From a virus (Duplodnaviria > Heunggongvirae > Uroviricota > Caudoviricetes), in the IMG/VR virus record IMGVR_UViG_3300042382_000594: 64,000 bases of DNA; one strand, given 5' to 3'. This document shows positions 10,150-62,114 of this stretch, piece by piece (the stretch's first letter is position 1; every line of letters begins with the position of its first letter). Both the position numbers and the translations under genes were made by a program. Under the pieces are notes generated by a model, which worked only from the letters and a program-made list of their open reading frames with translations, ran no database searches and had not been told where the DNA came from.

Positions 10150-10899
10150 TTATTTATTGTTGTTTTTAATTGGGTGAAATTTAGCCGGCGGGTTAAATTT
10201 CGGCGTATGTTTTACAACAAAAGAATCTTGTTTTTGTCCAATAATATGCGGATCATGCATAGCAGGATTACTTTGATGTTGCGGATGATTTGGAATATGT
10301 GGAACAGGAGCATGCGGAACAGGATGACTTGGCGGAACTACATGAGGTTCAGTATGAGTCAAATGTTGCGTGTTAACAGGAGGTTTTGAATGAACTGCGC
10401 GTTCCGGAGGTTTATATTCATGATGAAATTTATTTTGATAATTTTTTTCATGTTCCCTATTCATAGTATTCATTAAAATAGTATCTGCTTTAATTTCGCT
10501 ATCAGATTTAGTTACCTTTTTTTCGCGATTATTAAATTTATTAGTTAATTGTGCAATTTTTGGATTTGTATATCTTGAATGCAAATGAATACCAGCTTTA
10601 GCAAAACGAGCAGTTTCTGGATTTTTATATTGTCTAACAGAAGTATCTGTATCCTCAGTTAATCCACAAAACTCTTCATGATATTTCATTACTAATCTAT
10701 CTTTGAATGATAATGAAAATGGCGAATTTTTTCCTGATGAATGTGCAACTAGCTGCGGGGTTGATGTATCAGAATAATCTGGAGTAATTACACTAGGTTT
10801 TGCTTCTTTTCCATGAAAATGTTTCGATGGATGAGTAGATGAAAATGCCCCTTTTAGTGAAGTAAACCTACTTGAACTATGTTTATTTTTCGATGGCAT
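10150..10899 (-). CDS. His/Pro-rich low-complexity (probably disordered) basic protein
   Basis: C-terminal half is HxxP/PxH repeats (HVVPPSHPVPHAPVPHIPNHPQHQ). Confidence 0.35.
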   Translation of the reverse strand: MPSKNKHSSSRFTSLKGAFSSTHPSKHFHGKEAKPSVITPDYSDTSTPQLVAHSSGKNSPFSLSFKDRLVMKYHEEFCGLTEDTDTSVRQYKNPETARFAKAGIHLHSRYTNPKIAQLTNKFNNREKKVTKSDSEIKADTILMNTMNREHEKNYQNKFHHEYKPPERAVHSKPPVNTQHLTHTEPHVVPPSHPVPHAPVPHIPNHPQHQSNPAMHDPHIIGQKQDSFVVKHTPKFNPPAKFHPIKNNNK

Positions 10900-11695
10900 T
10901 TGGGATTACCTTTCTGAAATTTATTTTTTTAATTTTATTCAACACTTTTCTGGTATTTTCTTTATCTTGATCAGATTGCATACTAACTGTTGAAGATGCG
11001 GTACTTTGCATAGGACCGGTAGCTATAGGGGAAATATCATAATTAGGTGATTCAACTGATTCAGCAACTCCATTATAAACAGACCACGTCCCTGGAGTCA
11101 TACTTCTCGTATCAGAAGTATCTGCAGGAAGTTTTAATGGAACAATTTTATTAACCTTTTTCTTCAAATTAATTTTTACAATTTCTTCTAAACGCAAATC
11201 GGATTTAAATGTTAAATCTTCTAAAATATCATAAATAAATTCTCTTGATTCAGTTAAATCCAATGATTTTGAATTATCCACAGTAATATAAGAGTTAAAT
11301 AAACTAATAATTGCTTGTCTATTTGCATTTCCAACACTAATTCTATCCAATGATTCTTTTAAATTTTTTCTATCTTTTAATCTTTCAACAGCAATTCCTA
11401 AATCAGCCTCAACAACAATTAAATGCGTTGTATAACCAATTGCTTCTAATATATCTTTAGTTATAACAAACCCTAAATCAAATGAATTTCCAGTAACGAG
11501 TATAGAATATCTTTCTAAAAGAGAATCTTGTTTTTCCGATTTAGCTCGTTTAAATACTGCGTCATTATATAACATCTCATCAATTTGAGTTGACGTAAAT
11601 TCTACAATACCGTAATTAGATGCAATATCTCTAATTACGACATCCTTTCCGGATCCAGGAGATCCGATAATAAAAATTGCTTGTTTATTTTGCAT
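10883..11695 (-). CDS. P-loop nucleoside/nucleotide kinase-like protein with C-terminal extension
   Basis: Walker A IGSPGSGKDVVIRDIASNYG resembles the T4 gp1 N-terminus (SGVKRSGKDTTADFIMSNY). The rest is not gp1-like. 270 aa. Confidence 0.45.
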   Translation of the reverse strand: MQNKQAIFIIGSPGSGKDVVIRDIASNYGIVEFTSTQIDEMLYNDAVFKRAKSEKQDSLLERYSILVTGNSFDLGFVITKDILEAIGYTTHLIVVEADLGIAVERLKDRKNLKESLDRISVGNANRQAIISLFNSYITVDNSKSLDLTESREFIYDILEDLTFKSDLRLEEIVKINLKKKVNKIVPLKLPADTSDTRSMTPGTWSVYNGVAESVESPNYDISPIATGPMQSTASSTVSMQSDQDKENTRKVLNKIKKINFRKVIPNAIEK

Positions 11696-11696
11696 T

Positions 11697-12320
11697 TTAA
11701 AATAGTCTTATTTTGTTTAAAAATCCACGAATATATGATTCATGAACATTCATACCAGATTTAACATCACTCATCAATTCTTTTGCATGATCATCTGAAA
11801 CGTGAGATGGAACTCCTTGTCTAAATGAATGAAAATCATTGTTTTTAGCAAATTCTCGCATTTTAGTTCCAGACATACCAGCAGTTCCTTCTGCATTTGG
11901 ATCTCTATGACCAGCTGAACGCACTTCTATCTTTTTAAAATTATAATATCCATGTTTAGATGGCACTCCATTATATTTATGTATTAATTCTTCCATATCT
12001 TTTGTGCGATCCGAACCCGCAACATAAATTAAATGATCATGACCTTTATCGTGTAATTTAGATAAATGATGTAATAATGTTGGAGATTTAGAATCAGCTA
12101 CAGAAAAATTAGTTCCAGGAGAATATCTAGATAAATGTTTTAATTTGTGTTCTGAAGTTAATGGATTTTTCTTTGGATCATGACTACCTGAAGCGATAAT
12201 ATCATGATCAGCATTTTCTTTTTCTGCAGTAGAACGAACAGCATTAATTAACTGTAAGTGCCCAGTTGTAGGTGGATTCATTCTACCAAAAGCAGTAACA
12301 ACAGGATTTTTAGTGCTCAT
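11697..12320 (-). CDS. HxGH-motif nucleotidyltransferase (cytidylyltransferase/NMNAT-like)
   Basis: N-terminal AFGRMNPPTTGH matches the GRFxPxHxGH motif of the cytidylyltransferase-like superfamily (NadM/NMNAT, TagD). Confidence 0.55.
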   Translation of the reverse strand: MSTKNPVVTAFGRMNPPTTGHLQLINAVRSTAEKENADHDIIASGSHDPKKNPLTSEHKLKHLSRYSPGTNFSVADSKSPTLLHHLSKLHDKGHDHLIYVAGSDRTKDMEELIHKYNGVPSKHGYYNFKKIEVRSAGHRDPNAEGTAGMSGTKMREFAKNNDFHSFRQGVPSHVSDDHAKELMSDVKSGMNVHESYIRGFLNKIRLF

Positions 12321-13492
12321 TAACGTACCTTTAACAAATTAGCTTTAGAAAATTCTTCTCTATTAACAAGTTTAGTTGGTTCTCCATTATGATGAATAAC
12401 AAATCCTTCCGGATTTGTTCTTTTGTCACCAATATGGTGTTCTAATCCACCTTCATGTTGATTTAATGTTTTGGTTAAAATATTTTTAGCCGACTGTAAA
12501 TGGCCATGCATTTTTAATAAACGATTATAATGATCAGAATTACCAGCAATATGAGATAGATGACTAGTCAGTTCAGTATGTTTTCTAGCTTTACCTGCAT
12601 CACTTTTTAACTTATCAATTTGTTTTTCATATTTACCTACTATATGATTCTGCAATCCATCTGCAGAAGGTTTTTCGCCAGTTCTAACCGTATGATTAAT
12701 ATATGTTGCTAAATGACCGCTGTCACCACCATGAGGAGCTGTAGCATCATACATAGTATCTTTATGCGTTTTATGAATTTTATCAGCAGCATCCATATGT
12801 TTTTGAAATTTAGCTTGATCAGCTTCGCTATAATGAACGTTTTTGGTATCGTGTTCTGGAGTTTTACTCCAAACATCTGAATGAGATTTAAAATTATGTA
12901 AATCTGGATGAGGATCAGCTTTCATAGAAGATAAGGTATTTCCATGATACTGTGTATGAGTAACAACACCTAATTTTGCTTTTTTAACTTTATCTGCTTC
13001 TTCGCCGTGAGCAGTATATTTAATTGTATTTGGAGTAAATGATACGGATCCATTATCATTATGTTTCTTATCATCTCCACTAAACATTAAATCGCCTTGA
13101 TATACACCCTTTTTTGGAGTAATTTTATGTAAATGATCCAACGAATCTTTTAACTTCTCAACTAATCCAGGAGCATGGCCATGGTTTTGCTCAATATCTT
13201 CGTGAGTATAATTTATTTTTGGATTTTTATTAAATGCAGATTTACTGGCTACAAAGAATTTACCATTCTCTGGATGATGACCATATACGATGGAAGGAGA
13301 TCCATCGTATTTCATAGTAAGGTTAGTGCTATGTTCTCCAGATTTAATTGCATCATGAGCATGATGCAATGCACCTTTAGCATGAGCATATCCATTTGAA
13401 CCTTCAAAAACTCTATCTTCTGGATGTTTAATGTGCTTTAATTTAGCACCTTCTTCCTCGTTCTCAACAAGAAAATCTTTAAAACTTAGCAT
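12320..13492 (-). CDS. His-rich hypothetical protein
   Basis: 390 aa with very many His and Lys and no clear catalytic motif. Translationally coupled to the nucleotidyltransferase. Confidence 0.35.
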   Translation of the reverse strand: MLSFKDFLVENEEEGAKLKHIKHPEDRVFEGSNGYAHAKGALHHAHDAIKSGEHSTNLTMKYDGSPSIVYGHHPENGKFFVASKSAFNKNPKINYTHEDIEQNHGHAPGLVEKLKDSLDHLHKITPKKGVYQGDLMFSGDDKKHNDNGSVSFTPNTIKYTAHGEEADKVKKAKLGVVTHTQYHGNTLSSMKADPHPDLHNFKSHSDVWSKTPEHDTKNVHYSEADQAKFQKHMDAADKIHKTHKDTMYDATAPHGGDSGHLATYINHTVRTGEKPSADGLQNHIVGKYEKQIDKLKSDAGKARKHTELTSHLSHIAGNSDHYNRLLKMHGHLQSAKNILTKTLNQHEGGLEHHIGDKRTNPEGFVIHHNGEPTKLVNREEFSKANLLKVR

Positions 13493-13537
13493 ATAACCTC
13501 TCTGGCTTAATGTATATAATATAATTAACTATTTATA

Positions 13538-14443
13538 TTATAATAGTTTTTCTTTAATCCAGTCAATCACATTTATAGTTGGAACCCAATTTGTTGCTAA
13601 TTTAAATTTAGTATTATCTGATAAATTATTTAATGCTTCGCCAGCTGGTTTTTTAATATAAACAATACTATCTGATAGAGTATTAGCAATTTCATTAATA
13701 GTTTTTGTTTCTCCATATCCAATATTAAATACTTGAGCTTTCCACATATCTGGATTTGTATCAAAATTATCAATACATCGTATATTAGCCTGAGCAATAT
13801 CTTTTACATGTATAAAATCTCGCTCTTGGGTTCCATCACCAGTAACTGTTAATGGTTTACCATCTTTTAATAATTTTTCAAAGATACCTAATACTAGCGC
13901 ATATTGACCAGATTTGGGAGAACGTTCACCATAAACATTAAAATAACGAAGAATAACTGATTTAATTCCGTAGATTTCATAATAGTTTCTCAAAAATAAT
14001 TCTGCTGCATACTTAGTTGATGCATACGCATTTAAACAATCTTCTCGCTCAGTTTCTTTTAGCGGAAAATTTGTATTTAATCCATATATTGAAGATGTTG
14101 AAGAGAAAACAATACCTTTAATCTTATTTGCTTTTGCTGCTTCTAATACCGAAACAACGCCTTTAATGTTAGAATCAATTGCTTTTCTTGGATTAGCAAT
14201 AGAAGCACCTAATCGCGATTCTGCTGCTAAATGAAATATAAATTCACACCCTCTACTAACTGATATTAATTGCTTAGTATTACAAATATCAAAATGATAA
14301 TTTTTAATATTCTCATTAAAATAAAATTGATCATTATCTGCTGATAAATCATCAACATTAACAACAGTATAACCAGAATCAACTAACAAATCAATTAAAT
14401 GACTTCCAATAAACCCGCAACCACCAGTAACCAATACTTTCAT
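13538..14443 (-). CDS. NAD-dependent sugar-nucleotide epimerase/reductase (extended SDR)
   Basis: N-terminal VLVTGGCGFIGSHL Rossmann motif and YASTKYAAE (YxxxK) catalytic motif. Confidence 0.8.
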   Translation of the reverse strand: MKVLVTGGCGFIGSHLIDLLVDSGYTVVNVDDLSADNDQFYFNENIKNYHFDICNTKQLISVSRGCEFIFHLAAESRLGASIANPRKAIDSNIKGVVSVLEAAKANKIKGIVFSSTSSIYGLNTNFPLKETEREDCLNAYASTKYAAELFLRNYYEIYGIKSVILRYFNVYGERSPKSGQYALVLGIFEKLLKDGKPLTVTGDGTQERDFIHVKDIAQANIRCIDNFDTNPDMWKAQVFNIGYGETKTINEIANTLSDSIVYIKKPAGEALNNLSDNTKFKLATNWVPTINVIDWIKEKLL

Positions 14444-15168
14444 ACATCACCATTTATTGTTTGTTTAAAATATAAATTTATTGAATCAAATATTTTTTGT
14501 TTCAATGCAGTAGCAGAATAACTATGATCGCGTTCTATAAAATAAACAGGTAATTCTAAATCTTTACCAGTGAAACTTTTATCTTTATAATCAGAACCCA
14601 AAAAACGAATGTCAAAATTATTTATCTCTAGTAAATTATACAATTCTTCTTCTGTAGAATAACAGATAACATTATCAATATATCTAATTGCAGATAATAT
14701 TTCAATACGTTCTTCTACTGTTTGTACTGGGGTAATTTTATTTGCTGGAGAAATATTTAATAATACTGTTAAATTAGTGCAATGTAATTTAGCTTCTTTA
14801 AACATTCTAACATATCCAGGATGAATAATATCAAACGCTCCAGCTAATACTCCAAATTTATTTGGAATTGAGTTTTTCCAATCATCAATGGAAACCCCTT
14901 TATCATCAATAAAAATATGAGCATGAGGTTTAATACCCATAAGCAATTTATGATGTTTTATACCCCATTTTCTTAATTGGTCTTCAGTTAAATCATAATG
15001 ATCAATTCCACTAACGCAACCTCTTGCAGTCATAATAATAATTTCATGGCCAGAATCATATAAACGGTTAATCTCATTAACTACAGTTTTATCTGGAATA
15101 GAATTATAATATTCGCTATTTTCAACAGAGGAACAAATCGTTCCGTCTAAATCAAAACAATAAATCAT
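14440..15168 (-). CDS. bifunctional HAD-type sugar phosphatase / cytidylyltransferase-like nucleotidyltransferase
   Basis: N-terminal CFDLDGT HAD motif I (GmhB-like). C-terminal GAFDIIHPGY matches the HxGH nucleotidyltransferase motif (RfaE/HldE domain II-like). Confidence 0.6.
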   Translation of the reverse strand: MIYCFDLDGTICSSVENSEYYNSIPDKTVVNEINRLYDSGHEIIIMTARGCVSGIDHYDLTEDQLRKWGIKHHKLLMGIKPHAHIFIDDKGVSIDDWKNSIPNKFGVLAGAFDIIHPGYVRMFKEAKLHCTNLTVLLNISPANKITPVQTVEERIEILSAIRYIDNVICYSTEEELYNLLEINNFDIRFLGSDYKDKSFTGKDLELPVYFIERDHSYSATALKQKIFDSINLYFKQTINGDV

Positions 15169-15680
15169 TCAACAACTCCATGCAAAAATATTTGGTGTAC
15201 GCACTCAACTACGCCATAATCTTTACTATTAACGTGATAATCAAATTTGGCATTACGACCTAAACGACCCAAAACTCTAGCACTGTTACTTTTTGCAAAT
15301 CCAGTTAATATTCCATAAGGGTAATCATTTGCTTCGCAATATTTAATTACCTTTAATATATTTTCTGATTCGCCAGAAGAACTTATTAAAATAATAAATG
15401 TATCATAAGTTCTGTATGCTTTTACAAATTCTAAATACGCATTTTCCATACCGTAATCGTTAATAAAACACGTTAACATAGATGGATCGGAAAACGTTAA
15501 AGAATGTTTATGACACTTTTTAACATAATCTTGCGAGATATGAGAAGCAACTGAATTGCTTCCTCCATTACCGATAATAATAAATTTATTGTTTTGCTTA
15601 AAAACGCTTTTAAATTTATTGTATTCTTCGGAATCTTCCATTTTAGATAAAATATCTATACAATCTTTTATTAAACTCAT
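15165..15680 (-). CDS. gmhA: SIS-domain sedoheptulose-7-phosphate isomerase (GmhA-like)
   Basis: IIGNGGSNSVASH matches the GmhA GNGGSAADAQH signature. 171 aa. Confidence 0.7.
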   Translation of the reverse strand: MSLIKDCIDILSKMEDSEEYNKFKSVFKQNNKFIIIGNGGSNSVASHISQDYVKKCHKHSLTFSDPSMLTCFINDYGMENAYLEFVKAYRTYDTFIILISSSGESENILKVIKYCEANDYPYGILTGFAKSNSARVLGRLGRNAKFDYHVNSKDYGVVECVHQIFLHGVVE

Positions 15681-16624
15681 ATTTTTATACCTTCTACACC
15701 TGATGAACTTACATTTATTTTAATATAAGGTAACGATAAAGTCAAGCAGTTTTTCTTTGAAAATACAAGATAAAATCCGCCATTTCCTGCACCGCATAAT
15801 TTATGAGCTAATACTGTCGGGTTATCTAATAATATTTGATCGATTTCAGCTACAGTTACATTCTCGGTAATTAAATTACTTGTTTCCTTTTTAAGTTTCC
15901 AGCTATCAGAAACATATTGCAAAAATAACTCATATTCTTCATTATATAATGCTTGTTGAGCCAACTCAACAATTTGAATTAGTCCACGAGATTTTTCTAT
16001 ATTATTAGTAACATCTTTTAATACGTTTTTTGAATTTCGATTAACCCCTGTAAAAACTAAATGCATATCATAAATATCAAATATTTTTGTTGGGAGGAAT
16101 GTATATCTAACCTTATTATTTCTCTCAAATTCAATACGCTTAAATCCGCCAACCCCGCAACCAAATGGATCTTGTAATCCACAATGCGGATTAAACTTTT
16201 GTTCTAATTCAAGAGCAATTAAACAAATTTCAGTATCAGTTAAATGTAATTCATTTTTAATAGATATCGCTTTAATTAAAGAAATAATATAAGCTGACGA
16301 AGATGCCAATCCACTCCCTTGTGAGTAAACATCGCTGGTTAATGAAATTGTTAGAGGATCTATATTAAAATATTCTAATACAACTCTAACAACTTCATTT
16401 TTTATATCTTTAGCAAAAGATTCTTCTTCTCTAATAGAATAATTAAGAACATATTTATGTAAATGTTTGTTATAACCAACTTTATCTTCATGAATTGTAA
16501 CATAGGTTTTTAAATCACAAGTAAAACTTATTACTGAGCCATATCCATATCTCTCAATAAAAAGAGGATTATCAGTAGAACCCCCGAATAAAGAAACCCT
16601 TAATGGACAATTCGTTACTATCAT
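15677..16624 (-). CDS. GHMP-family sugar kinase (HddA-like heptose-7-phosphate kinase)
   Basis: GHMP motif 2 (SQGSGLASSSAYI). Lies between GmhA and a phosphatase/NTase in a heptose-pathway context. Confidence 0.7.
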   Translation of the reverse strand: MIVTNCPLRVSLFGGSTDNPLFIERYGYGSVISFTCDLKTYVTIHEDKVGYNKHLHKYVLNYSIREEESFAKDIKNEVVRVVLEYFNIDPLTISLTSDVYSQGSGLASSSAYIISLIKAISIKNELHLTDTEICLIALELEQKFNPHCGLQDPFGCGVGGFKRIEFERNNKVRYTFLPTKIFDIYDMHLVFTGVNRNSKNVLKDVTNNIEKSRGLIQIVELAQQALYNEEYELFLQYVSDSWKLKKETSNLITENVTVAEIDQILLDNPTVLAHKLCGAGNGGFYLVFSKKNCLTLSLPYIKINVSSSGVEGIKI

Positions 16625-17625
16625 GTTAAATAAACATCCTTAAATTCTTGCATTACGATTTCTGGAGTATAATTAGCAGTATAACCATCCCAATCTATTT
16701 TAGCTATCTCATTTCTATCAAAGAAACATAATATATTATATAGATCTTGGGCAGTATCATAATAAATTGCTTTATTTTGCATTAAGTAAATATGACCATA
16801 ATCATAAAAATGCGGTATTTCTTTTGGTAACCAAGAAATAACAGGTTTATTTCTAATAGTAAATTCAGCTACAGATAAACTAAATATTTCCCCATCAGCT
16901 CTTGCATGCATCATAGCATCACAAGTATTAACAAACTTCGCTTTTACTTGCTCGTCCATCGTCCATGGAAGATGAATAACTCGTTCGTGATCAATAAACT
17001 TATCTGTATTTAAAAAGACGAACCAGAGGTCTTTACGATCCTCTAACGCTTTTTTAATTGCAGGATAAACAAATTGTAGGTTAAAAGTTTCTCTACCACC
17101 ATGACGCCCAAGAACTAATGCATCTTTAGGGATACCCAATTCTTCTCTAAATGTATCATGCATATCTGAAGCTTCTTTTTCTAGAATATGATGAACATAA
17201 GGATGAGTTGCTCCAAATTTTTCTGAAATATATTTACATACCCCAGAATAAACGTCAGCATGAGGATCGTGCATTCTAAACACACAATGAGCCAACGATT
17301 TAGCATTAGTAGGCATTATACCATCATTTTCTCCAGCTTTAATTGCATAGAACGCATCAATCTTTTGCTTATCGCAAATTTTTTCTATAGCAGTTCTAAC
17401 ATTATTATTTTTAGCTCCATCTCTATATTCTTCTTCATATAAGATTGTTGAAAAATCTTTAAATCGATTTAAAGATGGAGTTGGTTTTAATCCAGAGGAA
17501 ATAATAATAGATTCATTACCCAAAATTTCTCTATTATATTTTGCATATTTGTAGAGACAAATTTCAGTACCTCTTTCACCTAATTGATTACTGTGGAACG
17601 CGATTCGCATTAGCTCTTTCCTCAT
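16621..17625 (-). CDS. GT-B fold glycosyltransferase (GT4-like)
   Basis: C-terminal ADGEIFSLSVAEFTIRNKPVIS resembles the GT4 E-x7-E/PVI motif. Confidence 0.45.
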   Translation of the reverse strand: MRKELMRIAFHSNQLGERGTEICLYKYAKYNREILGNESIIISSGLKPTPSLNRFKDFSTILYEEEYRDGAKNNNVRTAIEKICDKQKIDAFYAIKAGENDGIMPTNAKSLAHCVFRMHDPHADVYSGVCKYISEKFGATHPYVHHILEKEASDMHDTFREELGIPKDALVLGRHGGRETFNLQFVYPAIKKALEDRKDLWFVFLNTDKFIDHERVIHLPWTMDEQVKAKFVNTCDAMMHARADGEIFSLSVAEFTIRNKPVISWLPKEIPHFYDYGHIYLMQNKAIYYDTAQDLYNILCFFDRNEIAKIDWDGYTANYTPEIVMQEFKDVYLT

Positions 17626-18337
17626 CCATTTTTCTAAATTTTTCTACTGAATATTGACGTTCTTCTGTTTCAAGAGCTTGTAATTCAGGTTTTAAATAAT
17701 TAGCATCTTCGTGATATCTAAAACAATGAACAACTTTTTCAATCATAATTGGAGGACCATAATGCCAGTACGATCTAACAAAGTATTCTCCATCAACTAC
17801 GAATCGTAAATTTTCATCCATATCAATAGCAAATTCTCTACGAACTGCATAAGTAGAAGGATTTCCCGTTGAATTATCTCCGTTAACATATGCATTATCA
17901 AATCTAGGTAGCCTAGCATTAAAAAATTCAGTTCTATCTTCATTACAATTAACAAAGCCAGCAATCAACCACTTTTTATCTGGATTTGCTTGAAACGCAT
18001 CCCAAGTTTCCTGCAACCCAGTTTGTTCAACAAAAAAATCATCCATAAATAAAATTTTACATATTTCTCCAGTAGCTTTTTTCATACCAAAATTAACATT
18101 GGCTGCAGTAGAACCTCGCATATAATCGTTTTTATAGTATTTAATATCTAATACATGAGAAAAAGTGTCACAAATAGCTTTTAAATTATCACCAACACTA
18201 TGGTCAGCAACAACAATATCGAAATCTTTAAAATGTTGATACGATAATGAAGCAAAAAATTCTACTAAAAATCTTTCACTATAACCTTCTCTAATAGAAG
18301 AAGTATGAATGGGGGCAATTATTGATATTTTTGGCAT
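17588..18337 (-). CDS. GT-A fold glycosyltransferase (GT2-like)
   Basis: N-terminal ISIIAPIH...VVADHS pattern of GT2 enzymes. Confidence 0.5.
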   Translation of the reverse strand: MPKISIIAPIHTSSIREGYSERFLVEFFASLSYQHFKDFDIVVADHSVGDNLKAICDTFSHVLDIKYYKNDYMRGSTAANVNFGMKKATGEICKILFMDDFFVEQTGLQETWDAFQANPDKKWLIAGFVNCNEDRTEFFNARLPRFDNAYVNGDNSTGNPSTYAVRREFAIDMDENLRFVVDGEYFVRSYWHYGPPIMIEKVVHCFRYHEDANYLKPELQALETEERQYSVEKFRKMDEERANANRVPQ

Positions 18338-18340
18338 TAT

Positions 18341-19123
18341 TTAATCCTTTTCGTACATTGATCTAGGAAAGTATGTTTCACCTAAACTTGAAATTGGCGG
18401 CATAAAGGGAGCATTTTTTATTGTATAGAAATCGCTATTACAAACTGAACCTATCCACATTTCAGCTTTTAGCCTAATAGAATTCCAAGTTCGTAAATCA
18501 GTAGAATTAATTAAATTTATCCACCAATCATTTTCCATTATATCAGGGAGTTTATTTATATGCGAAGATTTAGACCACCAAATTGTTCCTGAATAATGAG
18601 GAGTTGGCCATTCGCACAAATTAACTCCAGCGCAAGAATGTGTTTCTAATGCTTTAATACAAAGTTTCCAGTTTTCAACGCAACCCCATTCTAAAAACTT
18701 TCTCCAATTATAATAATTAACATATCTTCTAAAATCGCCTGCTTGTTTCATTCTACTTGTAGCAGTAACTCCTTTAGAATGAAGATAAAGAAAATAAGCA
18801 TCTTCGCGTTTAGCATGAGCCTGTAATTCTTTCATTGTTATAGTTTCGTCATGAGGATTATGATTATCCAAATAATTAGAAGATAATTGTTGATCATTTA
18901 ATTTAGTTTCACAACAATTTAATACTTGAATTTTATTAAACTGAGTACATAATCCAACAAATAAATTTATTTGTTCCGGTGAACCGATACAATTAACATA
19001 CATTTTTTCCAATTCATCATATAAACCGGAATTTATAGTTAAATAAACTTGGTCTATAAATAAACTAGACCAAGTTCCAGTATCATCAGTAAGGTAAATG
19101 TGATAATACAAATATTTTTTCAT
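18341..19123 (-). CDS. hypothetical protein within glycan cluster
   Basis: ORF track. 260 aa, Trp/Cys-rich. Location only. Confidence 0.25.
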   Translation of the reverse strand: MKKYLYYHIYLTDDTGTWSSLFIDQVYLTINSGLYDELEKMYVNCIGSPEQINLFVGLCTQFNKIQVLNCCETKLNDQQLSSNYLDNHNPHDETITMKELQAHAKREDAYFLYLHSKGVTATSRMKQAGDFRRYVNYYNWRKFLEWGCVENWKLCIKALETHSCAGVNLCEWPTPHYSGTIWWSKSSHINKLPDIMENDWWINLINSTDLRTWNSIRLKAEMWIGSVCNSDFYTIKNAPFMPPISSLGETYFPRSMYEKD

Positions 19124-20154
19124 TAGGCTAACTCAATCCATTCTTGATTATCTAATGACCAATGAACGACTTCTGAAATACGTTCTTGAAGAGATACTTT
19201 TGGTTCCCAACCTAGAGATTTCATATATTCACCAGATAAAGCATAACGTAAATCGTGTCCAGGTCTAGAAGTATGGAAATCAATCATTTCATAATTTAAT
19301 TCTTTTCCCGCTGCAGCAGCAATCATTTTGGCTAAAGATAAATTATCAATTTCTTCTTTACCAACAACATTAAATTTAGGGCATTTAGCATTACCATAAT
19401 CAGGTTCGTAGATAGAAGGATTATCTAAATTTAATAAGAATAACATAGCATCAGCAACATCACTAGCATGAATATAATGGCGGCTACCAGCTTGAGTTTT
19501 ATCAGCATTAGAATGAATAAAAACTGTATCTCCATCTCTAGCTCTACGGATACATAATGGAATAAACTTTTCTGGATGTTGACGCTCACCAAACACATTC
19601 ATTGTGTGAGTAACAAAGATCGGAGTTCCATAAGTATTTTCATATGCTACACACAATTCTTCGCCTGCAGCTTTAGAAGCTGAATATGGATTTGTTGAAT
19701 TATATCTATCGCGTTCTTTATAATCAACGCCCTCTGGGGCGACACCAAAAATTTCATCAGTAGAAAAATAGATAAATCTTTCTAAACTTTTATGTTTTCT
19801 AGCGAACTCTAGGATATTTGTAGTACCAACAACATTATCCATTACAAATTCCATAGGAAATTCAATAGATCGATCTACATGACTTCCTGCAGCTAAATGT
19901 AGGATATAATTTATTTCACCAATAAAATTCTGTGTTAATGTTGAAATTTCAGCTTTTAAATCATGAAATACGAATTTAATTCTACTTTTAAATTCCGGAT
20001 TTCTAGCAATAACGTCAGCTAATCTATTTAAATTACCAGATAAATCTAATCTGTCTAACGTAACAATTTCCCAGTCAGTATTTGTTAGGAAATGATATAG
20101 AACATGATGTGCAATAAAACCTGCTCCGCCTGTTATTAATACTCTTTTTGCCAT
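19123..20154 (-). CDS. NDP-sugar 4,6-dehydratase (RmlB/GDP-heptose dehydratase-like SDR)
   Basis: VLITGGAGFIAHH, YSASKAAGE, HPEKFIPL and RPGHDLRYAL align with RmlB motifs (YSASKA, EKLIPL, RPGHDRRYAID). Confidence 0.8.
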   Translation of the reverse strand: MAKRVLITGGAGFIAHHVLYHFLTNTDWEIVTLDRLDLSGNLNRLADVIARNPEFKSRIKFVFHDLKAEISTLTQNFIGEINYILHLAAGSHVDRSIEFPMEFVMDNVVGTTNILEFARKHKSLERFIYFSTDEIFGVAPEGVDYKERDRYNSTNPYSASKAAGEELCVAYENTYGTPIFVTHTMNVFGERQHPEKFIPLCIRRARDGDTVFIHSNADKTQAGSRHYIHASDVADAMLFLLNLDNPSIYEPDYGNAKCPKFNVVGKEEIDNLSLAKMIAAAAGKELNYEMIDFHTSRPGHDLRYALSGEYMKSLGWEPKVSLQERISEVVHWSLDNQEWIELA

Positions 20155-20169
20155 TTTAAAACCCCCAAA

Positions 20170-20862
20170 TTACGAATAATTACAAATTTTTCCAGAATAA
20201 ACTTCAATAGAATTAAACATACCATTAGTAGAAAACGTTCCATCTACTATTTCATCGCATCTTAATTTAAATAAGTCAGCGTTTTGTTTATATCTTCCCT
20301 GAAATAAATGATATACAGAATTAGCAAATACTGTTCCAATACCGTAATATCCAAAATTACCCAATCTCCAAACACCTTCAACCGGCTCACGCTCAAAATT
20401 TGTTGGATACAATGCTTTATATGGAACCATAAAATCTTCAGCAACGTATGAAACTTCTTCAGCAACATCGCTTCTTGAATTTTCTAAGAAAGATGGTTTA
20501 CCCATTTTAACCCAAGTATCTCTATATATAAAGAAAAAGCACGGAGCAGCAAAAATATGCGCTCTTGGAGCAATATGATTTGATGCTTGAGCTGTTCCAA
20601 TAAATGATTTTGTTGCAGTTGCATATGCAATAGCATATTCTACAATACCTGCATTTAAGGGAACGCAATCATTATCAAAAAAACCAACAACGTCAGCTGT
20701 GCTATTTTCTAAAACCTCATTCATCCATTGACCATGAGGAATTGTTGTTAAATCATATTGAACCTGTAACCCTAAATGTTCAGTTACTTTTTTATGCGAT
20801 TCAATTAAATATTCACCATTTTGCCAATACATACATCTTAATTCTACAGTTACTTCTTCCAT
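20170..20862 (-). CDS. hypothetical protein within glycan cluster
   Basis: ORF track. 230 aa. Confidence 0.25.
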   Translation of the reverse strand: MEEVTVELRCMYWQNGEYLIESHKKVTEHLGLQVQYDLTTIPHGQWMNEVLENSTADVVGFFDNDCVPLNAGIVEYAIAYATATKSFIGTAQASNHIAPRAHIFAAPCFFFIYRDTWVKMGKPSFLENSRSDVAEEVSYVAEDFMVPYKALYPTNFEREPVEGVWRLGNFGYYGIGTVFANSVYHLFQGRYKQNADLFKLRCDEIVDGTFSTNGMFNSIEVYSGKICNYS

Positions 20863-21563
20863 GGATATTTCCCATTATATGTTTCATTCATTATTTTATT
20901 ACCCTGCTCAAAAAATTCTTTTGTCACAGAACCCTCGTTACCGCCCAATCGATAATTAATTGTATATTCACCAGAACATTCATAATTATTAAAATTATTA
21001 TGCAATACATTAAAAATTACTCTATCTTCACCCCAACCGGAATGCCAGAATGAAGCAATTTTAATAGCAATTTCTTTTGGAATACAATAACAATTAGTAT
21101 CAACCATATTTGTATTAGTCCAAGCAGACCATTTTCCTAAACTTTCGCAATTATCTTGCAACAAATACTCTCCAGCAGGAGAATATATATTACGCAAACT
21201 ATATGCCCATTGAGATCCAGTTGATTCAATAGTTGAAATCATAGATTCAATATGAGTAGGTTCATACCAATTATCTTGATCTAAGAAAAACAAATAATCT
21301 TTGTTTACTAGATGAGAAAAAGAGGCATAAATTCGTTGGCCATAAAAACCACCAGCACCAACGTTTTCTTCTAGATAAACTAGTTGAATAGGAATACCAA
21401 AACCTCTACCAAAAAACATCTTTCTTACTTTAGAAGCAAATTCTTTTCCATCAACTACAATAAGAGCAGTAACGTCCTTGTATGTTTGTTTAGAAATACT
21501 CTCTACTGCTTGTATAAGAGTGTCAGCTCCTGTTGTAGGAATTATTACTATCGCGCTTTTCAT
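20850..21563 (-). CDS. GT-A fold glycosyltransferase (GT2)
   Basis: AIVIIPTTG...ALIVVDGKE pattern typical of GT2 enzymes. Confidence 0.6.
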   Translation of the reverse strand: MKSAIVIIPTTGADTLIQAVESISKQTYKDVTALIVVDGKEFASKVRKMFFGRGFGIPIQLVYLEENVGAGGFYGQRIYASFSHLVNKDYLFFLDQDNWYEPTHIESMISTIESTGSQWAYSLRNIYSPAGEYLLQDNCESLGKWSAWTNTNMVDTNCYCIPKEIAIKIASFWHSGWGEDRVIFNVLHNNFNNYECSGEYTINYRLGGNEGSVTKEFFEQGNKIMNETYNGKYPWKK

Positions 21564-22960
21564 TATACTTTAAACCCATCAAATGATTTCTTTTCAAATT
21601 TATTTTGTTTTTGCATAGATTTATATGACTCAGATGGATCCATGCTTCCAGCATCAGTAATACCTTCCTGCGCTGATTGTTCAACATCAAATAATTTCAT
21701 CTTAGCTCTATCAACGCCAACAACAAAACGTTTATTTAAATTTAAATCTCTATATCGATTTTTTAATTGTTTAATCATTATTTGATTTAAATCATATAGT
21801 TCTTCGCTGTTAATAATTGCACACATAAAATCAGCAATAGCAGGAACACCAAATGATTCAGATACATCACTCATATCAACATCACTACTTTGAGATCCGC
21901 TTCTAGTTGTCTGAGTTGCTGTTACTACAGGAATACTAAACTCTTGAGCGAAGCCCCGCAATTCTTGCGCAATAGCTTGAATATATGTATAAGTGTTGAT
22001 ACTACCAGACATCTTCATTCTAGAACTAGCACAAATATTTAAATAATCAATAAAAACTACATCTGGAACGAAATTCTTTTTTAAACGCAATTCATTTAAT
22101 AAAGTTCTAAAATGATTTACATTAGCTGCAGCTGTTGGGTATTCTTTGACAAATAACTTACCAATCGTTTTTGATTTAACATAATTAATCTTTTTATCAA
22201 AAGAAGATTTATCCAATTGCATTAAATCATCCATAGATATTCTAAGCAAATTAGCATCAATACGTTTTGCGATTTCTTCTTCAGCCATTTCACAAGTTAT
22301 GTATAAAACATTTTTACCTGATAACTGAAAATCAGCTGCGAAATTACACATCATTAAACTTTTGCCGCCATGGGGTGGAGCTAAGATAACATTTAGAGTT
22401 TTCTTCGGTAAGCCGCCATTTGTTATTAAATTAAAATAATTTAAACTAAAAGGAACTTTTTCCTCAGTTCTATGATAATATTCATAACGACTATCGGCAT
22501 CACCCAAATAGTCGTGACCAACGCTTGAATCAAATGATATTGATAATGCTTCAGATAATAATGTAGGAATACTTCCCTTAGATAAATCTTTATGTTTTCC
22601 ATCAAGAATTGTAATAGATTCTCTAACAGCATTAAAGATTGCTTGGTCTTGACAAAAAGTTTCCGTTTTATCAACTAACCATTCTAAATCTACAGTTTCA
22701 GATTTAGCTTCATGCAATTCATTTAATAATGTAAGAGTTTCTTTATGTTCTTCTTCGGAAACTGCTTTTTCATTTAACTGAATAATAAGAGCTTCATATG
22801 TTGGAATATTTCCATAATTTGTAATGAACGAACTAATCTCGTTAAAAATTGTTCGTTCATTTCTATCATTAAAATAATCTGCCCTTAAAAAAGGTAATAC
22901 TTTTCTCGTAAATTCTTCAGAGTAATGAAGGTTCTTCAAAATCAGCGTATTCAGATTCAA
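21563..22960 (-). CDS. 41: replicative DNA helicase (T4 gp41, DnaB-like)
   Basis: Walker A PPHGGKSLMM, DnaB-like C-terminal RecA fold. Position between the primase region and uvsX. Confidence 0.85.
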   Translation of the reverse strand: MNLNTLILKNLHYSEEFTRKVLPFLRADYFNDRNERTIFNEISSFITNYGNIPTYEALIIQLNEKAVSEEEHKETLTLLNELHEAKSETVDLEWLVDKTETFCQDQAIFNAVRESITILDGKHKDLSKGSIPTLLSEALSISFDSSVGHDYLGDADSRYEYYHRTEEKVPFSLNYFNLITNGGLPKKTLNVILAPPHGGKSLMMCNFAADFQLSGKNVLYITCEMAEEEIAKRIDANLLRISMDDLMQLDKSSFDKKINYVKSKTIGKLFVKEYPTAAANVNHFRTLLNELRLKKNFVPDVVFIDYLNICASSRMKMSGSINTYTYIQAIAQELRGFAQEFSIPVVTATQTTRSGSQSSDVDMSDVSESFGVPAIADFMCAIINSEELYDLNQIMIKQLKNRYRDLNLNKRFVVGVDRAKMKLFDVEQSAQEGITDAGSMDPSESYKSMQKQNKFEKKSFDGFKV

Positions 22961-34167: not shown

Positions 34168-34171
34168 AACG

Positions 34172-34993: not shown

Positions 34994-35008
34994 TTATCAC
35001 CTAAAAAT

Positions 35009-35075
35009 TGGACGCGAAAGGGTGGAATAGAACCGCAAGTTATGAGCCTAGCTATCTACCACTGATATACTTCGC
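35009..35075 (-). tRNA. degenerate tRNA-like element with CAU anticodon loop (possible pseudo-tRNA)
   Basis: Acceptor 6/7 bp, perfect D-arm tatc/gata, anticodon loop ctcataa. The anticodon stem is weak and no canonical T-arm could be folded. Confidence 0.25.
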
Positions 35076-35083
35076 ATAATATT

Positions 35084-35160: not shown

Positions 35161-35168
35161 TAATAATT

Positions 35169-35244: not shown

Positions 35245-35259
35245 AATTTGTAAAGTATC

Positions 35260-46026: not shown

Positions 46027-46034
46027 GGTAGATT

Positions 46035-60193: not shown

Positions 60194-60201
60194 GTTTTTC
60201 T

Positions 60202-60765
60202 CTATTGGTGAGTATGATATCTTGGTGGCTTATGGATAATTGCATTGATTCTAACTTGACTGCATACATTTCCATATGTATTAGATATATCAATAATTTC
60301 TTGCATATTATGATTAGACATATCAGTATCACAATCATAAGCTACTTGTGATACTTCTATATCAACATTGCACTGATACCCTAATGTAGTTTCCTGACCC
60401 CCAGATTCAATTGTTTGTTTATTTCTATGTTGATTAAACATATCAATTGTAACAGGCGTAATTTTTCTGCAGTGTGTTGGGTCGTGGTGAAAGTTCTCGT
60501 GATTATGATGCGGAACTACAATCTTTAATTGACCTTGATCGCTTAAAATTCTATAAAATTCTTTAATAATATTTAAAAAGGTATCTGTTTGCTGCCCAAG
60601 ATGTTCTAATACATGATTAAGAATAATTTCGTCAACAGAATTATCATCGAACGGTAATTTAGTTTCTAAATTTGCTATTACATCAGGGTTACAATTTTGA
60701 TCATAATCGACGTTGATATATCCATCTAATTTATTATATCCGCACCCAAGGTTTAATTTAATCAT
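60202..60765 (-). CDS. class I SAM-dependent methyltransferase
   Basis: LNLGCGYNKLDGYINVD (motif I) and LPFDDNSVDEIILNHVLEHL (motifs II/III). Confidence 0.7.
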   Translation of the reverse strand: MIKLNLGCGYNKLDGYINVDYDQNCNPDVIANLETKLPFDDNSVDEIILNHVLEHLGQQTDTFLNIIKEFYRILSDQGQLKIVVPHHNHENFHHDPTHCRKITPVTIDMFNQHRNKQTIESGGQETTLGYQCNVDIEVSQVAYDCDTDMSNHNMQEIIDISNTYGNVCSQVRINAIIHKPPRYHTHQ

Positions 60766-62114
60766 AATAAATTGTTATTGTTAGGTAGGGAAATGGTGGA
60801 ATTTCCATATACTTGTCTGATTTCTAATTTCGATTTGAGTTGATTCATTGGTTCTGCCCATGATTTCCATTTAATTTGTCTTAATAGAGTCGTATTCTTA
60901 TACCAGATAGTTGATGTATCTGTTGTTGAACTCCATAGATAGTATTCAAATATTGGAGTAAAAATATAAGTTTCTTTTCCTAATGCTCCAGCTGCATGAG
61001 GCACAGAAGTACAGCTGGAAACGACATAATCTAAATTATATATTAATCCTAGAGTATCATCAAATGTTTTTAATTTAGCCGATAAATCAATTATTGGTCT
61101 AATGTTGGAATGAATTGGTTCTTGATGTAATGAAACTAATACTGCTTGTTCCGAAATATTAGATACTAATTCGTCTAAATCTAGAGTTCGATGTAAATTA
61201 TGTTCGTATCCTATTTCTCCATAATATTTAATACCAACGCAACCTCTATATTGTTTAAACTTTTCGATAGATTCAGGAGTAGCTGTTAAGTAAGGTCCTT
61301 TATCAATTTCATGTTCATCTAGATTTAATAGGTACGGTAATCTCATAGAAACACACCAAACTGTATATTTGGTTGAGTCTAATTCAGTCACGTGTTCGAT
61401 TGCTTGATATCCCATTCTAATAATAATATCTCGAATATCTTTTCTATGAGTCTTCCATACTGGGATCATACCTAACGCTTTAATATTTTCAAGAAATCTT
61501 ATGTTAATAATTTCATCGCCATATCCGCCATAAGATTCAATTAATAATACTGCATCTTGAATAGGAGTTTTATCCCAATAATCGAAATTGTATTTATTGG
61601 TTTCTTTAGGTTTAGAGTTATCCCAAATACAAGACAACCCTTTATTAAATTCATGTCTTGATAGATAATATGCGGTAAGATTATGTTTGACTGCATTACG
61701 AATTGCTGAATTATTAGACTTTTGTTCAAGTTCTAATAAAAGCTTATTAGCTTCATCCCTATTATTTAACAATGATAAAGATATAGACTTTTCAATTAAC
61801 ACATCTTCATTATTGGGGGTTTTATTAAGCACCCAGTTTGACAATTCCAATGATTTATGTGGCTCATTTAATAAATTATAAACTCGAGTTAAATTAACTT
61901 TAATAAAATATTCTTCTTGCTCGGTAGCAATCTCTAATTCTCTAATTGCTAAGTCTATAACTTCTTGATAAAAATGAAGTTTATCGTAAATTACAATAAT
62001 TTCATCCATTTGCTCTATCGTAAATGCATGTAATTCAAAAGTTTTAAGTAATTCGCGCGCCAAATTACTTTTATTATTGTCATGCAAAAACATAGCTATT
62101 TCTAACAACGTCAT
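60762..62114 (-). CDS. TPR-repeat N-terminal domain fused to GT9-family (heptosyltransferase-like) glycosyltransferase
   Basis: C-terminal LIYNLDYVVSSCTSVPHAAGALGKETYIFTPIFEYYLW matches the heptosyltransferase signature LI...DL.I..DSGPMHLAAALG.P.V.LFGPT. The N-terminal 170 aa are helical repeats. Confidence 0.55.
   Translation of the reverse strand: MTLLEIAMFLHDNNKSNLARELLKTFELHAFTIEQMDEIIVIYDKLHFYQEVIDLAIRELEIATEQEEYFIKVNLTRVYNLLNEPHKSLELSNWVLNKTPNNEDVLIEKSISLSLLNNRDEANKLLLELEQKSNNSAIRNAVKHNLTAYYLSRHEFNKGLSCIWDNSKPKETNKYNFDYWDKTPIQDAVLLIESYGGYGDEIINIRFLENIKALGMIPVWKTHRKDIRDIIIRMGYQAIEHVTELDSTKYTVWCVSMRLPYLLNLDEHEIDKGPYLTATPESIEKFKQYRGCVGIKYYGEIGYEHNLHRTLDLDELVSNISEQAVLVSLHQEPIHSNIRPIIDLSAKLKTFDDTLGLIYNLDYVVSSCTSVPHAAGALGKETYIFTPIFEYYLWSSTTDTSTIWYKNTTLLRQIKWKSWAEPMNQLKSKLEIRQVYGNSTISLPNNNNLL

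Follow-up and report, generated by a model that had tools for sequence, protein, structure and literature searches.

The window, a 64,000-nucleotide stretch of DNA from a T4-like aquatic phage, carries a genuine sugar-gene island. We read this island as an auxiliary glycan module, with a probability of roughly 0.6, in which a four-gene cassette would make an NDP-heptose and the remaining genes would build a short heteroglycan on an existing acceptor. The island most likely has two layers: the cassette, which is conserved and horizontally exchanged, and a lineage-specific set of genes. This reading builds on observed gene families and motifs, on synteny and distribution, and on purifying selection.

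Island architecture

An ORF check of the 64-kb window finds twelve co-oriented minus-strand ORFs, each at the position given in the initial annotation (Table 1). They are flanked by a P-loop kinase-like gene (10883-11695) on one side and by the gp41 helicase gene (21563-22960; DnaB_C, 3.4e-22 in a profile search) on the other. Profile searches and a structure model bear out nearly every earlier family call on these ORFs, among them the GT-B (16621) and both GT2 (17588 and 20850) transferases. Ten of the twelve (13538-21563) form the island, which lies inside the replication module and adjoins gp41, UvsX and gp43, and the pair at 11697-13492 makes up a variable unit of its own. Along the run of five consecutive genes from 16621 down to 13538, each shares 4 bp with its neighbour, and dN/dS relative to related contigs is 0.03-0.28 for all island genes, indicating purifying selection. 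The island ORFs are therefore real, expressed-type genes rather than chance ORFs. The core comprises four translationally coupled genes, encoding the GHMP kinase, the SIS isomerase, the HAD-phosphatase/cytidylyltransferase fusion and the SDR. No priming phosphoglycosyltransferase, flippase, polymerase or ligase is found among the island genes in the ORF list or by profile search, and the absence of the priming transferase, flippase and ligase implies that the module must decorate something that already exists.

Table 1 Features of the sugar-gene island and of other loci in the window
Coordinates	Strand	Feature	Basis or remark
11697..13492	-	Cytidylyltransferase-like protein (207 aa) and DUF6267 protein (390 aa, KYDG motif)	Outside island
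13538..14443	-	GalE-like SDR, fourth gene of conserved cassette	NCBIfam, PDB, synteny
14440..15168	-	Small HAD phosphatase (residues 1-100) and cytidylyltransferase-fold nucleotidyltransferase (103-231)	Pfam, NCBIfam, motifs, PDB
15165..15680	-	SIS-fold isomerase, GmhA-like, GNGGS loop	NCBIfam, PDB profile matches, invariant residues
15677..16624	-	GHMP sugar kinase, HddA-like	NCBIfam, PDB profile matches, motifs
16621..17625	-	GT-B glycosyltransferase, GT4-like (retaining type)	4-bp overlap with kinase gene
17588..18337	-	GT2 (GT-A) glycosyltransferase	PF00535 1.8e-10
18341..19123	-	DUF8361 protein	Precomputed Pfam PF27674 on identical or near-identical genes
19123..20154	-	RmlB-type NDP-hexose 4,6-dehydratase	TIGR01181, PDB, TDE and YxxxK motifs
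20170..20862	-	Unnamed family, candidate small GT-A-like transferase	DxD motif
20850..21563	-	GT2 glycosyltransferase, adjoins gp41	PF00535 1.4e-10
44644-46026	+	TET/JBP dioxygenase	PF12851 9.8e-24
46035-46844	+	TET-associated glycosyltransferase (TAGT)	PF20691 7.8e-12
60762..62114	-	TPR domain and GT9 (heptosyltransferase) fold, neck/tail-fibre module	Possibly connected

The four-gene cassette

All 13 of the top 13 PDB matches of the SIS protein are phosphoheptose isomerases, and gmhA is its top NCBIfam match (1.4e-14), under the curated cut-off (54 versus 209 bits). Four residues invariant in 81 family members (H47, D51, E159 and H167) align with H61, E65, Q172 and H180 of GmhA. KdsD and GutQ are absent among the NCBIfam and PDB matches, and the GmhA-type assignment of the initial annotation holds. 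The earlier kinase call also stands, in that HddA-type heptose kinases, rather than galacto- or mevalonate kinases, are the best matches of the GHMP protein: HddA is the top NCBIfam match (1.3e-26, under the cut-off at 94 versus 600 bits), fucokinase and galactokinase trail far behind, and the best PDB matches (4n3o, 3k85 and WcbL, at 1.8e-21) are all heptose kinases. The three GHMP motifs are invariant across 76 homologs.

The third gene had been described as a HAD phosphatase fused to an HxGH cytidylyltransferase, with GmhB and HldE domain II as the proposed identities. The fusion itself is real, with HAD at residues 1-100 and CTP_transf_like at 103-226 in the profile search, but the motif is HPGY, not HxGH, and neither identity is supported. 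DxDGT, AFDxxHPGY and R-x-H-x-Y-S-T-T are invariant in the family. The phosphatase half, which matches PDB profiles 9iqw (5.5e-17) and 1xpj, is, judged by its sequence, a TIGR01689/1xpj-type HAD and not GmhB. The transferase half matches TagD (1coz, 5.9e-18) ahead of HldC (5x9q, 8.7e-9), scores 51 bits for rfaE domain II against a curated cut-off of 181, and is no nearer to HldE domain II than to TagD. The SDR scores 1.3e-46 for GalE versus 1e-31 for heptose 6-epimerase in NCBIfam, and its best PDB matches are the 4-epimerases 6dnt, 4zrm, 6wjb, WbgU and WbpP, with HldD at just 1.5e-20. It is probably an NDP-sugar 4-epimerase or 4-oxidoreductase.

These families are consistent with a five-step route. 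The GmhA-like isomerase would convert sedoheptulose-7-phosphate to heptose-7-phosphate, the HddA-like kinase would phosphorylate the anomeric C1, the HAD half of the fusion would remove the 7-phosphate, and the cytidylyltransferase-fold half would join heptose-1-phosphate to an NTP, for which we favour CTP on account of the TagD-like motifs. The GalE-like SDR may then epimerise or oxidise the NDP-heptose at C4. The isomerase/kinase/phosphatase/nucleotidyltransferase logic of the enzyme set originally proposed for NDP-heptose is thus retained, but with a phosphatase that is not GmhB and a TagD-like transferase. We infer every substrate, nucleotide, anomer and acceptor in this scheme, and neither these nor the product can be read from the sequence.

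Several features count against heptose. Every cassette protein scores far under the curated heptose-family cut-offs, the HAD half is of the TIGR01689/1xpj type, and the transferase profile is nearer to TagD than to HldC. We know of no characterised precedent for an HddA-type kinase (alpha pathway) working with a cytidylyltransferase-fold transferase (beta pathway). It is conceivable, if unlikely, that the same logic serves another sugar, with the SIS protein acting on a substrate such as ribulose-5-phosphate and a product that is not heptose. The low scores fit such a route, and T4-like phages do make NDP-arabinose for DNA by the same isomerase/kinase/HAD/nucleotidyltransferase logic, using a 1xpj-like HAD of the TIGR01689 type found here (PMC13326640). 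However, the isomerase of the arabinose route is KdsD-type and its kinase APH-type, whereas the SIS protein here matches GmhA and DiaA only and the kinase matches HddA first. We retain NDP-heptose as the preferred product, a reading to which the heptosyltransferase-fold protein encoded elsewhere in the window lends support.

The GDP-D-glycero-alpha-D-manno-heptose pathway (GmhA, HddA, GmhB, HddC), known from Aneurinibacillus and from Campylobacter and Burkholderia capsules, likewise pairs a SIS isomerase with a GHMP anomeric kinase and moves phosphate from C7 to C1 via a bisphosphate before nucleotide activation. It differs in having GmhB in place of a small TIGR01689/1xpj-type HAD and an RmlA/HddC-type transferase in place of a cytidylyltransferase fold, and the two activities are fused in our cassette, whose identity to HddA and GmhA is just ~25-30%.

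Distribution and published relatives

The initial annotation regarded a phage heptose route as not an established system, a view that the distribution and literature contradict: marine cyanophages commonly carry the four-gene core, whose heptose genes have already been annotated and published. At least 567 IMG/VR contigs have the cassette. Of 80 IMG/VR loci fetched, 63 keep its order, GHMP-SIS-HAD/NT-SDR, with the SDR following the fusion gene, and in 12 of the remaining 17 the contig ends within the locus. The usual setting in phages is a large LPS-like island that also contains GT11, GT25, methyltransferase and aminotransferase genes. Among cells, a Prochlorococcus single-cell genome has the cassette next to genes for GT2, GT1/4 and Bac_transf, and a 6-Mb bacterial chromosome has it next to a Polysacc_synt flippase and Bac_transf.

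The closest described relative is Synechococcus phage SynMITS9220M01, in which genes 204-207 (MT408532) have the same order and 45-59% amino-acid identity and are mentioned as heptose-related LPS genes (Belisle et al. 2020, PMC7378029). There the fusion gene is annotated as hypothetical, the partner glycosyltransferases are unrelated to those here, and the cassette terminates a large, hypervariable glycan island rather than lying in the replication module. The "6-epimerase" label of its SDR is not supported by PDB comparison, which favours 4-epimerases. Viral NDP-heptose enzymes have been reported to be active (PMC11461863, commentary on Tang et al. 2024; PMC11573728). That system, known from viruses and cells, shares with ours a cytidylyltransferase-fold heptose nucleotidyltransferase, a type with CDP- and UDP-heptose as known products, but has a PfkB/ribokinase-type instead of a GHMP kinase, and (F/L)xxGxSTT and HxGH instead of R-x-H-x-Y-S-T-T and HPGY. 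The commentary describes the phosphatase as absent from viruses, whereas here it is fused to the transferase (PMC11461863).

Lineage-specific genes

The second layer would consist of a GT4-like transferase, two GT2 proteins, one probable GT-A protein, a DUF8361 protein and an RmlB-type dehydratase. These may cooperate in the cytoplasm to build a short heteroglycan, with the dehydratase as putative source of a 6-deoxyhexose precursor. The RmlB-like call at 19123 was correct (TIGR01181, TDE and YxxxK motifs), but the 6-deoxy-heptose tailoring (DmhA/DmhB) proposed with it is not supported: TIGR01181 scores 2.5e-71 versus 3.3e-15 for gmd, PDB RmlB 8du1 scores 2.2e-48 versus 2.9e-18 for the GDP-heptose dehydratase 7us5, the dehydratase is lineage-specific and outside the conserved cassette, and the SDR is GalE-like. 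Homologs of the GT2 at 17588 recur in other cyanophage islands at 29-34% identity. The DUF8361 protein gave no match in our own search of the Pfam copy used. In the 20170 family (503 representatives), D63 and D65 of the DxD motif are invariant; Glycos_transf_2 is matched by 7 of 32 aligned members, a match that may lie in the longer members' extra domains, and the protein has a weak PDB match to the GT-A protein STIV A197. Its product is probably a small GT-A-like transferase.

Candidate acceptors

Phage DNA is a tentative candidate acceptor. NDP-heptose and a deoxyhexose from the island, with its glycosyltransferases, may install or extend glycans on TET-made 5-hydroxymethyl-pyrimidines, the first sugar being added by the TAGT that neighbours the TET/JBP gene. 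This hypermodification pair lies in the same window and 125-kb contig, is kept at the same position in related contigs, and is possibly connected to the island. The replication-module location (gp41, UvsX, gp43) and two further GT-like genes beside a T4 gp1-type dNMP kinase point the same way. A phage gene cluster, contig 53 of the 5mYOX/TET clusters, has been reported to heptosylate 5hmC in DNA, yielding mono- and di-heptosyl-5hmC, with a HAD phosphatase, kinase, cytidylyltransferase and GT-B, and such glycosyltransferases often adjoin helicase, polymerase and clamp genes (Pyle et al., bioRxiv 10.1101/2023.12.21.572611; Cell Rep 2024). Its APH-like kinase is fused to HAD, whereas the GHMP kinase here is a separate gene; it has no isomerase, heptose phosphate being supplied by E. 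coli; and its genes adjoin TET and methyltransferase genes, whereas TET/TAGT here lie 23 kb off on the opposite strand. The T4-like Caulobacter phage Cr30 (KF301602) independently combines TET-like and TAGT-like genes with HddA-like, GmhA-like, GT2, GalE-like and TagD-like NT genes near replication genes, at 27-38% identity, but these are dispersed rather than in a four-gene cassette. We saw no HAD fusion in Cr30, and the literature searched describes no function for its sugar genes. Against a DNA acceptor, SynMITS9220M01, the only cultured phage among those searched to match the single-gene HAD-NT fusion and the other three cassette genes, has no TET or TAGT match; most phage cassettes lie in LPS-like islands and cellular copies in Bac_transf polysaccharide loci; the window yielded neither a C5 methyltransferase nor a ThyA-type hydroxymethylase; the island glycosyltransferases have no similarity to TAGT; and the distance and opposite strand of TET/TAGT likewise speak against it.

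Glycan intermediates of the host envelope are a possible acceptor to the same degree. The glycosyltransferases would then act on host lipid-linked or LPS-core intermediates and alter the cell surface, for instance blocking superinfection. Such "cyanophage LPS genes" are taken this way, as an interpretation, in the literature (PMC7029224, PMC7378029), the GT2 and GT4 families commonly take part in assembling lipid-linked glycans, and homologous cassettes occur in cellular polysaccharide loci with Bac_transf, flippase and GT2/GT4. The missing priming transferase, flippase, polymerase and ligase argue against it. Also against it, the capsid protein gives no clear pointer to a host, being just ~62% identical to those of Synechococcus, Methylophilales and Pelagibacter phages.

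A virion protein acceptor is somewhat more doubtful. Here the TPR-GT9-fold protein would use NDP-heptose on structural proteins, with sulfation possible; its N-terminal TPR domain and adjacent APS kinase, methyltransferase and sulfotransferase genes are consistent with this, and phage S-SRM01 carries the same TPR-GT9-like protein, together with a sulfotransferase, in the midst of its tail-fibre and RCC1 genes. Yet the window's protein falls short of the PF01075 threshold, its gene is 40 kb from the island, and homologs occur in only six phage records, none of them among the seven with HddA-like kinase matches; Cr30 and SynMITS9220M01 lack one. As far as is known, the GT9 and TibC enzymes characterised to date take ADP-heptose in its beta-linked form, which clashes with the alpha anomer predicted by an HddA-type kinase.

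The flanking unit

The two ORFs at 11697 (CTP_transf_like, 3e-7) and 12320 (DUF6267, 1e-99) had been counted in a twelve-gene pathway cluster, of which the ten genes of the island remain. The pair falls outside the pathway because DUF6267 is widespread, being a core gene of ~470 marine T4-like phage records, and because two related contigs keep the island with 289-aa and 616-aa genes in place of the pair. A promoter-like site is located at 13566-13537.

Genome setting of the sugar island

From a 125,787-bp metagenomic contig of a T4-like myovirus, the window covers the first 64 kb with an offset of 14 bases; its GC content is ~30%. Its gp41 helicase shares ~55% identity with cyanophage homologs, and its major capsid protein is ~62% identical to Synechococcus, Methylophilales and Pelagibacter phage counterparts. 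All twelve minus-strand ORFs of the initial annotation are present, and ten of them (13538–21563) form a sugar gene island adjoining the gp41 gene. At every junction between the gene at 16621 and the one at 13538, five genes in all, neighbours overlap by 4 bp. Because all island genes are under purifying selection (dN/dS 0.03–0.28 in comparison with two related contigs), chance or decaying ORFs are ruled out. A near-identity search of the island DNA against 50,697 phage records returned a sole match, 166 bp in S-SM2.

Features of the window, named by coordinate (single numbers are gene starts)
Position	Strand	Feature	Basis or remark
4016-4861, 28281-28709, 36460-37071	-	SPFH/Band 7 protein, Hsp20, peptide deformylase	Within replication genes
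10883-13492	-	P-loop kinase-like, 207-aa cytidylyltransferase-like and DUF6267 genes	Kinase-like: weak AAA_33, zeta-toxin
13538	-	GalE-like SDR	HldD far down the list
14440	-	Small HAD phosphatase fused to cytidylyltransferase-fold domain	Model and family-profile matches
15165	-	SIS protein with GNGGS loop	Best models GmhA; Pfam SIS_2 and SIS
15677	-	GHMP kinase	Best model HddA
17588, 20850	-	GT2 glycosyltransferases	Pfam matches
18341	-	DUF8361 protein	Precomputed Pfam
19123	-	RmlB-type 4,6-dehydratase, intact TDE motif	Campylobacter GDP-heptose dehydratase a distant match
20170	-	Unnamed family, probably GT-A-like	503 representatives, invariant DxD
33544-36161	-	T4 gp1-type dNMP kinase, then two glycosyltransferase-like ORFs (273 and 264 aa)	PF21448 3.7e-12; Glyco_tranf_2_4 1.8e-5; weak Anp1-like
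39930-40682	+	250-aa opposite-strand ORF with NUMOD3 motif	Between gp47 and the next gene
44644-46844 (start)	+	TET/JBP 2OG-Fe oxygenase, 460 aa	PF12851 9.8e-24
44644-46844 (end)	+	TAGT (TET-associated glycosyltransferase), 269 aa, 8 bp after TET/JBP	PF20691 7.8e-12
59792-62904	-	APS kinase (133 aa), methyltransferase (187 aa), TPR + GT9-fold protein (450 aa), sulfotransferase (255 aa)	Between gp13/gp14 neck genes and tail-fibre-like genes

The other two ORFs, at 11697 and 12320, had been counted in the cluster and are not part of the sugar pathway. Relatives that keep the whole island have the DUF6267 gene (12320) and the 207-aa transferase gene swapped for 289-aa and 616-aa genes, and DUF6267 belongs to the core set shared by marine T4-like phages: it is found in 470 phage records, every one of which labels it hypothetical. 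Between the C terminus of the 616-aa product and the 207-aa protein, identity is 32%. Neither DUF6267 nor the 207-aa transferase gave a match in PDB sequence searches. A strong promoter-like site (11/12 match) lies upstream of DUF6267; otherwise the sigma-70 scan that located it carries no information, as it found fewer sites than shuffled sequence gives. The DUF6267 protein (390 aa) is His-rich and contains a KYDG motif that resembles ligase motif I; together with the two genes listed beside it, it may constitute a putative nucleic-acid end-processing or ligation module.

Cassette enzymes and proposed chemistry

Four island genes, encoding the GHMP kinase, the SIS protein, the HAD/nucleotidyltransferase fusion and the SDR, make up a cassette whose nearest characterized relatives include enzymes of heptose metabolism, although all heptose-family scores of the window proteins lie well under curated cut-offs. 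The identification of 15165 as a GmhA-like SIS protein holds. Its five NCBIfam matches are four GmhA models and DiaA, its 13 best PDB matches (13/13) are phosphoheptose isomerases, and a KdsD/Kdo-type function was dropped since no KdsD-type or GutQ protein was found among the matches obtained. Against TIGR00441 (GmhA) the protein scores 54.5 bits, under the cut-off of 209.45. Residues H47, D51, E159 and H167 are invariant in 81 homologs and align with the catalytic/metal tetrad of E. coli GmhA (H61, E65, Q172 and H180), two of the four being conservative replacements. The GHMP kinase is also closest to heptose enzymes, with HddA as its top NCBIfam match (1.3e-26; 93.9 bits against model NF049969, under the cut-off of 600) and the heptose kinases 4n3o, 3k85 and WcbL as its best PDB structures, fucokinase and galactokinase lying far behind. 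GHMP motifs I–III are invariant in 76 homologs.

The HAD half of the fusion protein carries DxDGT, T47, K80 and DD motifs and falls outside the HAD-IIIA/GmhB subfamily in which it had been placed (HAD-IIIA 20 bits, cut-off 44.6), resembling instead TIGR01689 (EcbF/BcbF; top model, 6.3e-6) and its top PDB matches, 9iqw and 1xpj. For the transferase half, for which a likeness to the HldE C-terminal domain had been suggested, rfaE_dom_II ranks first in the single-sequence search (51.4 bits against a TIGR02199 cut-off of 181.5, versus 45 bits for TagD), whereas the family profile is closer to TagD (1coz, 68.5 bits) than to HldC (5x9q, 38.5 bits). The HxGH and (F/L)xxGxSTT signature of HldE domain II/HldC is replaced by HPGY and R-x-H-x-Y-S-T-T. 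All 20 aligned family members carry DxDGT, AFDxxHPGY and R-x-H-x-Y-S-T-T without variation. The SDR scores 159 bits with GalE and 110 bits with HldD (TIGR02197, cut-off 274.6), and more than 50 GalE-type PDB structures rank ahead of HldD 4ej0; an HldD (ADP-heptose 6-epimerase) function was rejected.

Acting in sequence, the isomerase, kinase and phosphatase would shift the phosphate of a heptose phosphate from C7 to C1, and the transferase would then activate the sugar. The predicted enzyme set fits this scheme. Further support comes from how tightly the genes are coupled and from the joining of steps 3 and 4 in one protein, and the TagD-like motifs would favour CTP as the nucleotide. The cassette matches neither of the textbook heptose routes, since its kinase is of the alpha-pathway type and its transferase has the cytidylyltransferase fold. 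Since an HddA-type kinase is combined here with a HAD phosphatase–TagD-like transferase fusion, the cassette may make an undescribed sugar nucleotide; our literature search turned up no biochemical study of the product, its nucleotide and anomer, or the acceptor. An analogous route in RB69-like phages, built on a KdsD-type isomerase and an APH-type kinase, yields NDP-arabinose for DNA (PMC13326640), but the enzyme types differ from those of the cassette.

A further proposal, 6-deoxy-heptose tailoring by a DmhA/DmhB pair, is not supported. The 19123 dehydratase belongs to the RmlB rather than the gmd lineage (2.5e-71 versus 3.3e-15) and matches the PDB heptose dehydratase 7us5 at only 2.9e-18, so a DmhA function was rejected; it is also missing from the conserved cassette of other phages, and the SDR is GalE-like. 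Its substrate is more plausibly a host dTDP- or UDP-hexose than a heptose. The GT4-like family had no match in a PDB sequence search.

Distribution and recombination of the cassette

The order GHMP, SIS, HAD/NT, SDR is conserved. The cassette recurs in the cultured Synechococcus phage SynMITS9220M01 (45–59% identity) and in 63 of the 80 IMG/VR loci retrieved, 12 of the remaining 17 ending at a contig edge. With at least 567 confirmed matches in the IMG/VR scan, it is among the commoner auxiliary modules of marine T4-like phage contigs. In most cyanophages it lies at the end of a long hypervariable glycan island, alongside GT11-like, GT25, GT2, GT4, methyltransferase and DegT aminotransferase genes; the six non-cassette genes of the window island are common to close relatives only. 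In the nearly identical contig IMGVR_UViG_3300044633_001933, flanking genes are 97–100% identical to those of the window (dS 0.07–0.13), whereas the SIS protein shares 78% amino acid identity (dS 1.17) and the fusion protein 87% (dS 0.49; kinase and fusion 0.41–0.49). Because these dS values far exceed those of the flanks, the cassette is a recombination mosaic, which indicates recent recombinational replacement within it (13538–16624).

The cassette also occurs in cells. In Prochlorococcus single-cell genomes its neighbours are GT2, GT1/4, Bac_transf and CobD genes, and in a 6-Mb bacterial chromosome it adjoins a Polysacc_synt flippase and Bac_transf. These contexts support host envelope glycans as a candidate acceptor, which is the usual reading in the literature (PMC7029224, PMC7378029). 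The window island is without a priming transferase, flippase or ligase gene.

A complete phage heptose route had been described as not an established system, a view that earlier work overturns. Heptose genes are already annotated and published for SynMITS9220M01 (PMC7378029), gmhA is regarded as one of the standard auxiliary genes of viruses (PMC9238414), and NDP-heptose enzymes of viral origin are reported to be active (PMC11461863, PMC11573728). Pyle et al. (bioRxiv 10.1101/2023.12.21.572611) have produced heptosylated DNA of the phage type. The island thus adds to a known phenomenon. P-SSM2 gene 311 (239311–239655, 114 aa), phiR1-RT g052 and an S-T4 gene are labelled 'phosphoheptose isomerase', but such ~114-aa genes resemble residues 3–97 of the fusion protein (45% identity), in its small HAD phosphatase domain, and not the SIS isomerase. 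Judged by these alignments, the label on small HAD phosphatases is a propagated misannotation; it probably extends to records beyond P-SSM2 and phiR1-RT, and could inflate viral gmhA counts.

Candidate acceptors

What cyanophage 'LPS genes' glycosylate is a long-standing question, and this genome is a good test case because its cassette coexists with TET/TAGT and TPR-GT9/sulfotransferase genes. The latter lie in a four-gene block beside tail-fibre-like genes, whose sulfotransferase matches PF13469 (5e-20) and whose content suggests PAPS-dependent sulfation and glycosylation of something tail-linked. Virion proteins are accordingly a candidate acceptor, and S-SRM01 has a similar block, with the same TPR-GT9-like protein and a sulfotransferase amid tail-fibre and RCC1 genes. 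Against virion proteins, the TPR-GT9-like gene and the cassette do not co-occur in other complete genomes, and the characterised GT9 and TibC enzymes are known to take ADP-heptose in the beta linkage. In some homologs of the TPR protein a sulfotransferase domain forms part of the same polypeptide.

A third possibility, to which we assign a tentative probability of roughly 30%, is that the heptose ends up on the phage's own DNA. In this reading, the TET/JBP oxygenase would make 5-hydroxymethyl-pyrimidines, and TAGT and the island glycosyltransferases would add a heptose-containing glycan, the NDP-heptose being entirely phage-made from sedoheptulose-7-phosphate. The TET/TAGT pair implies glycosylation of hydroxymethyl-pyrimidines in phage DNA, and the island sits in the replication module. 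Pyle et al. report that HAD/kinase, cytidylyltransferase and GT-B genes clustered in a phage add one or two heptoses to 5hmC, and Caulobacter phage Cr30 independently unites TET, TAGT and heptose-type genes. Cr30 and the window share TET, TAGT, HddA, GmhA, GT2, GalE and TagD-like genes, at only 27–38% identity. Conversely, SynMITS9220M01 has the cassette yet no TET or TAGT match, and a C5 cytosine methyltransferase was not seen among the scanned window ORFs. As in phage TET/5mYOX glycosylation clusters, a DNA glycosyltransferase adjoins the 5mYOX oxygenase, but sugar-activating genes are not beside it, the island being 23 kb off. The IMG/VR scan with TET gave mostly close relatives, with 10-kb flanks too short to reach the island, and its three more distant loci contained no cassette genes. 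BLAST of the window glycosyltransferases against TAGT revealed no paralogy. If true, no earlier T4-like phage would have shown a natural heptose-DNA system that is self-sufficient, and the very common cyanophage 'LPS island' might in part be devoted to modifying nucleic acids.

Additional genomic features

The TET/TAGT pair lies on the strand opposite to nearly all other genes. It is an insertion between gp23 and a tail-tube-like gene, and the patch that holds it has raised GC and a positive GC skew. Its position is kept in most related contigs, several relatives have TET without detectable TAGT, and a distant DNA search with the pair gave no match. Homologs spanning the full length of TET are present in Cr30, DLP6 and C48C1. 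The Cr30 genes include TET-like gp129 (labelled 'SNF2 DNA repair protein'), TAGT-like gp122 and TagD-like gp178; its TET gene is followed by a cupin (labelled 'cysteine dioxygenase') of the type found in the P-SSM2 and P-TIM68 sugar cassettes.

The gp1-type kinase block is situated between gp45 and the peptide deformylase gene. A kinase of this type is not known among the usual cyanophage core genes, and it may point to non-canonical nucleotides. The SPFH/Band 7, Hsp20 and peptide deformylase genes belong to the auxiliary repertoire usual for aquatic T4-like phages, and the NUMOD3 ORF is probably a homing-endonuclease-like insertion.
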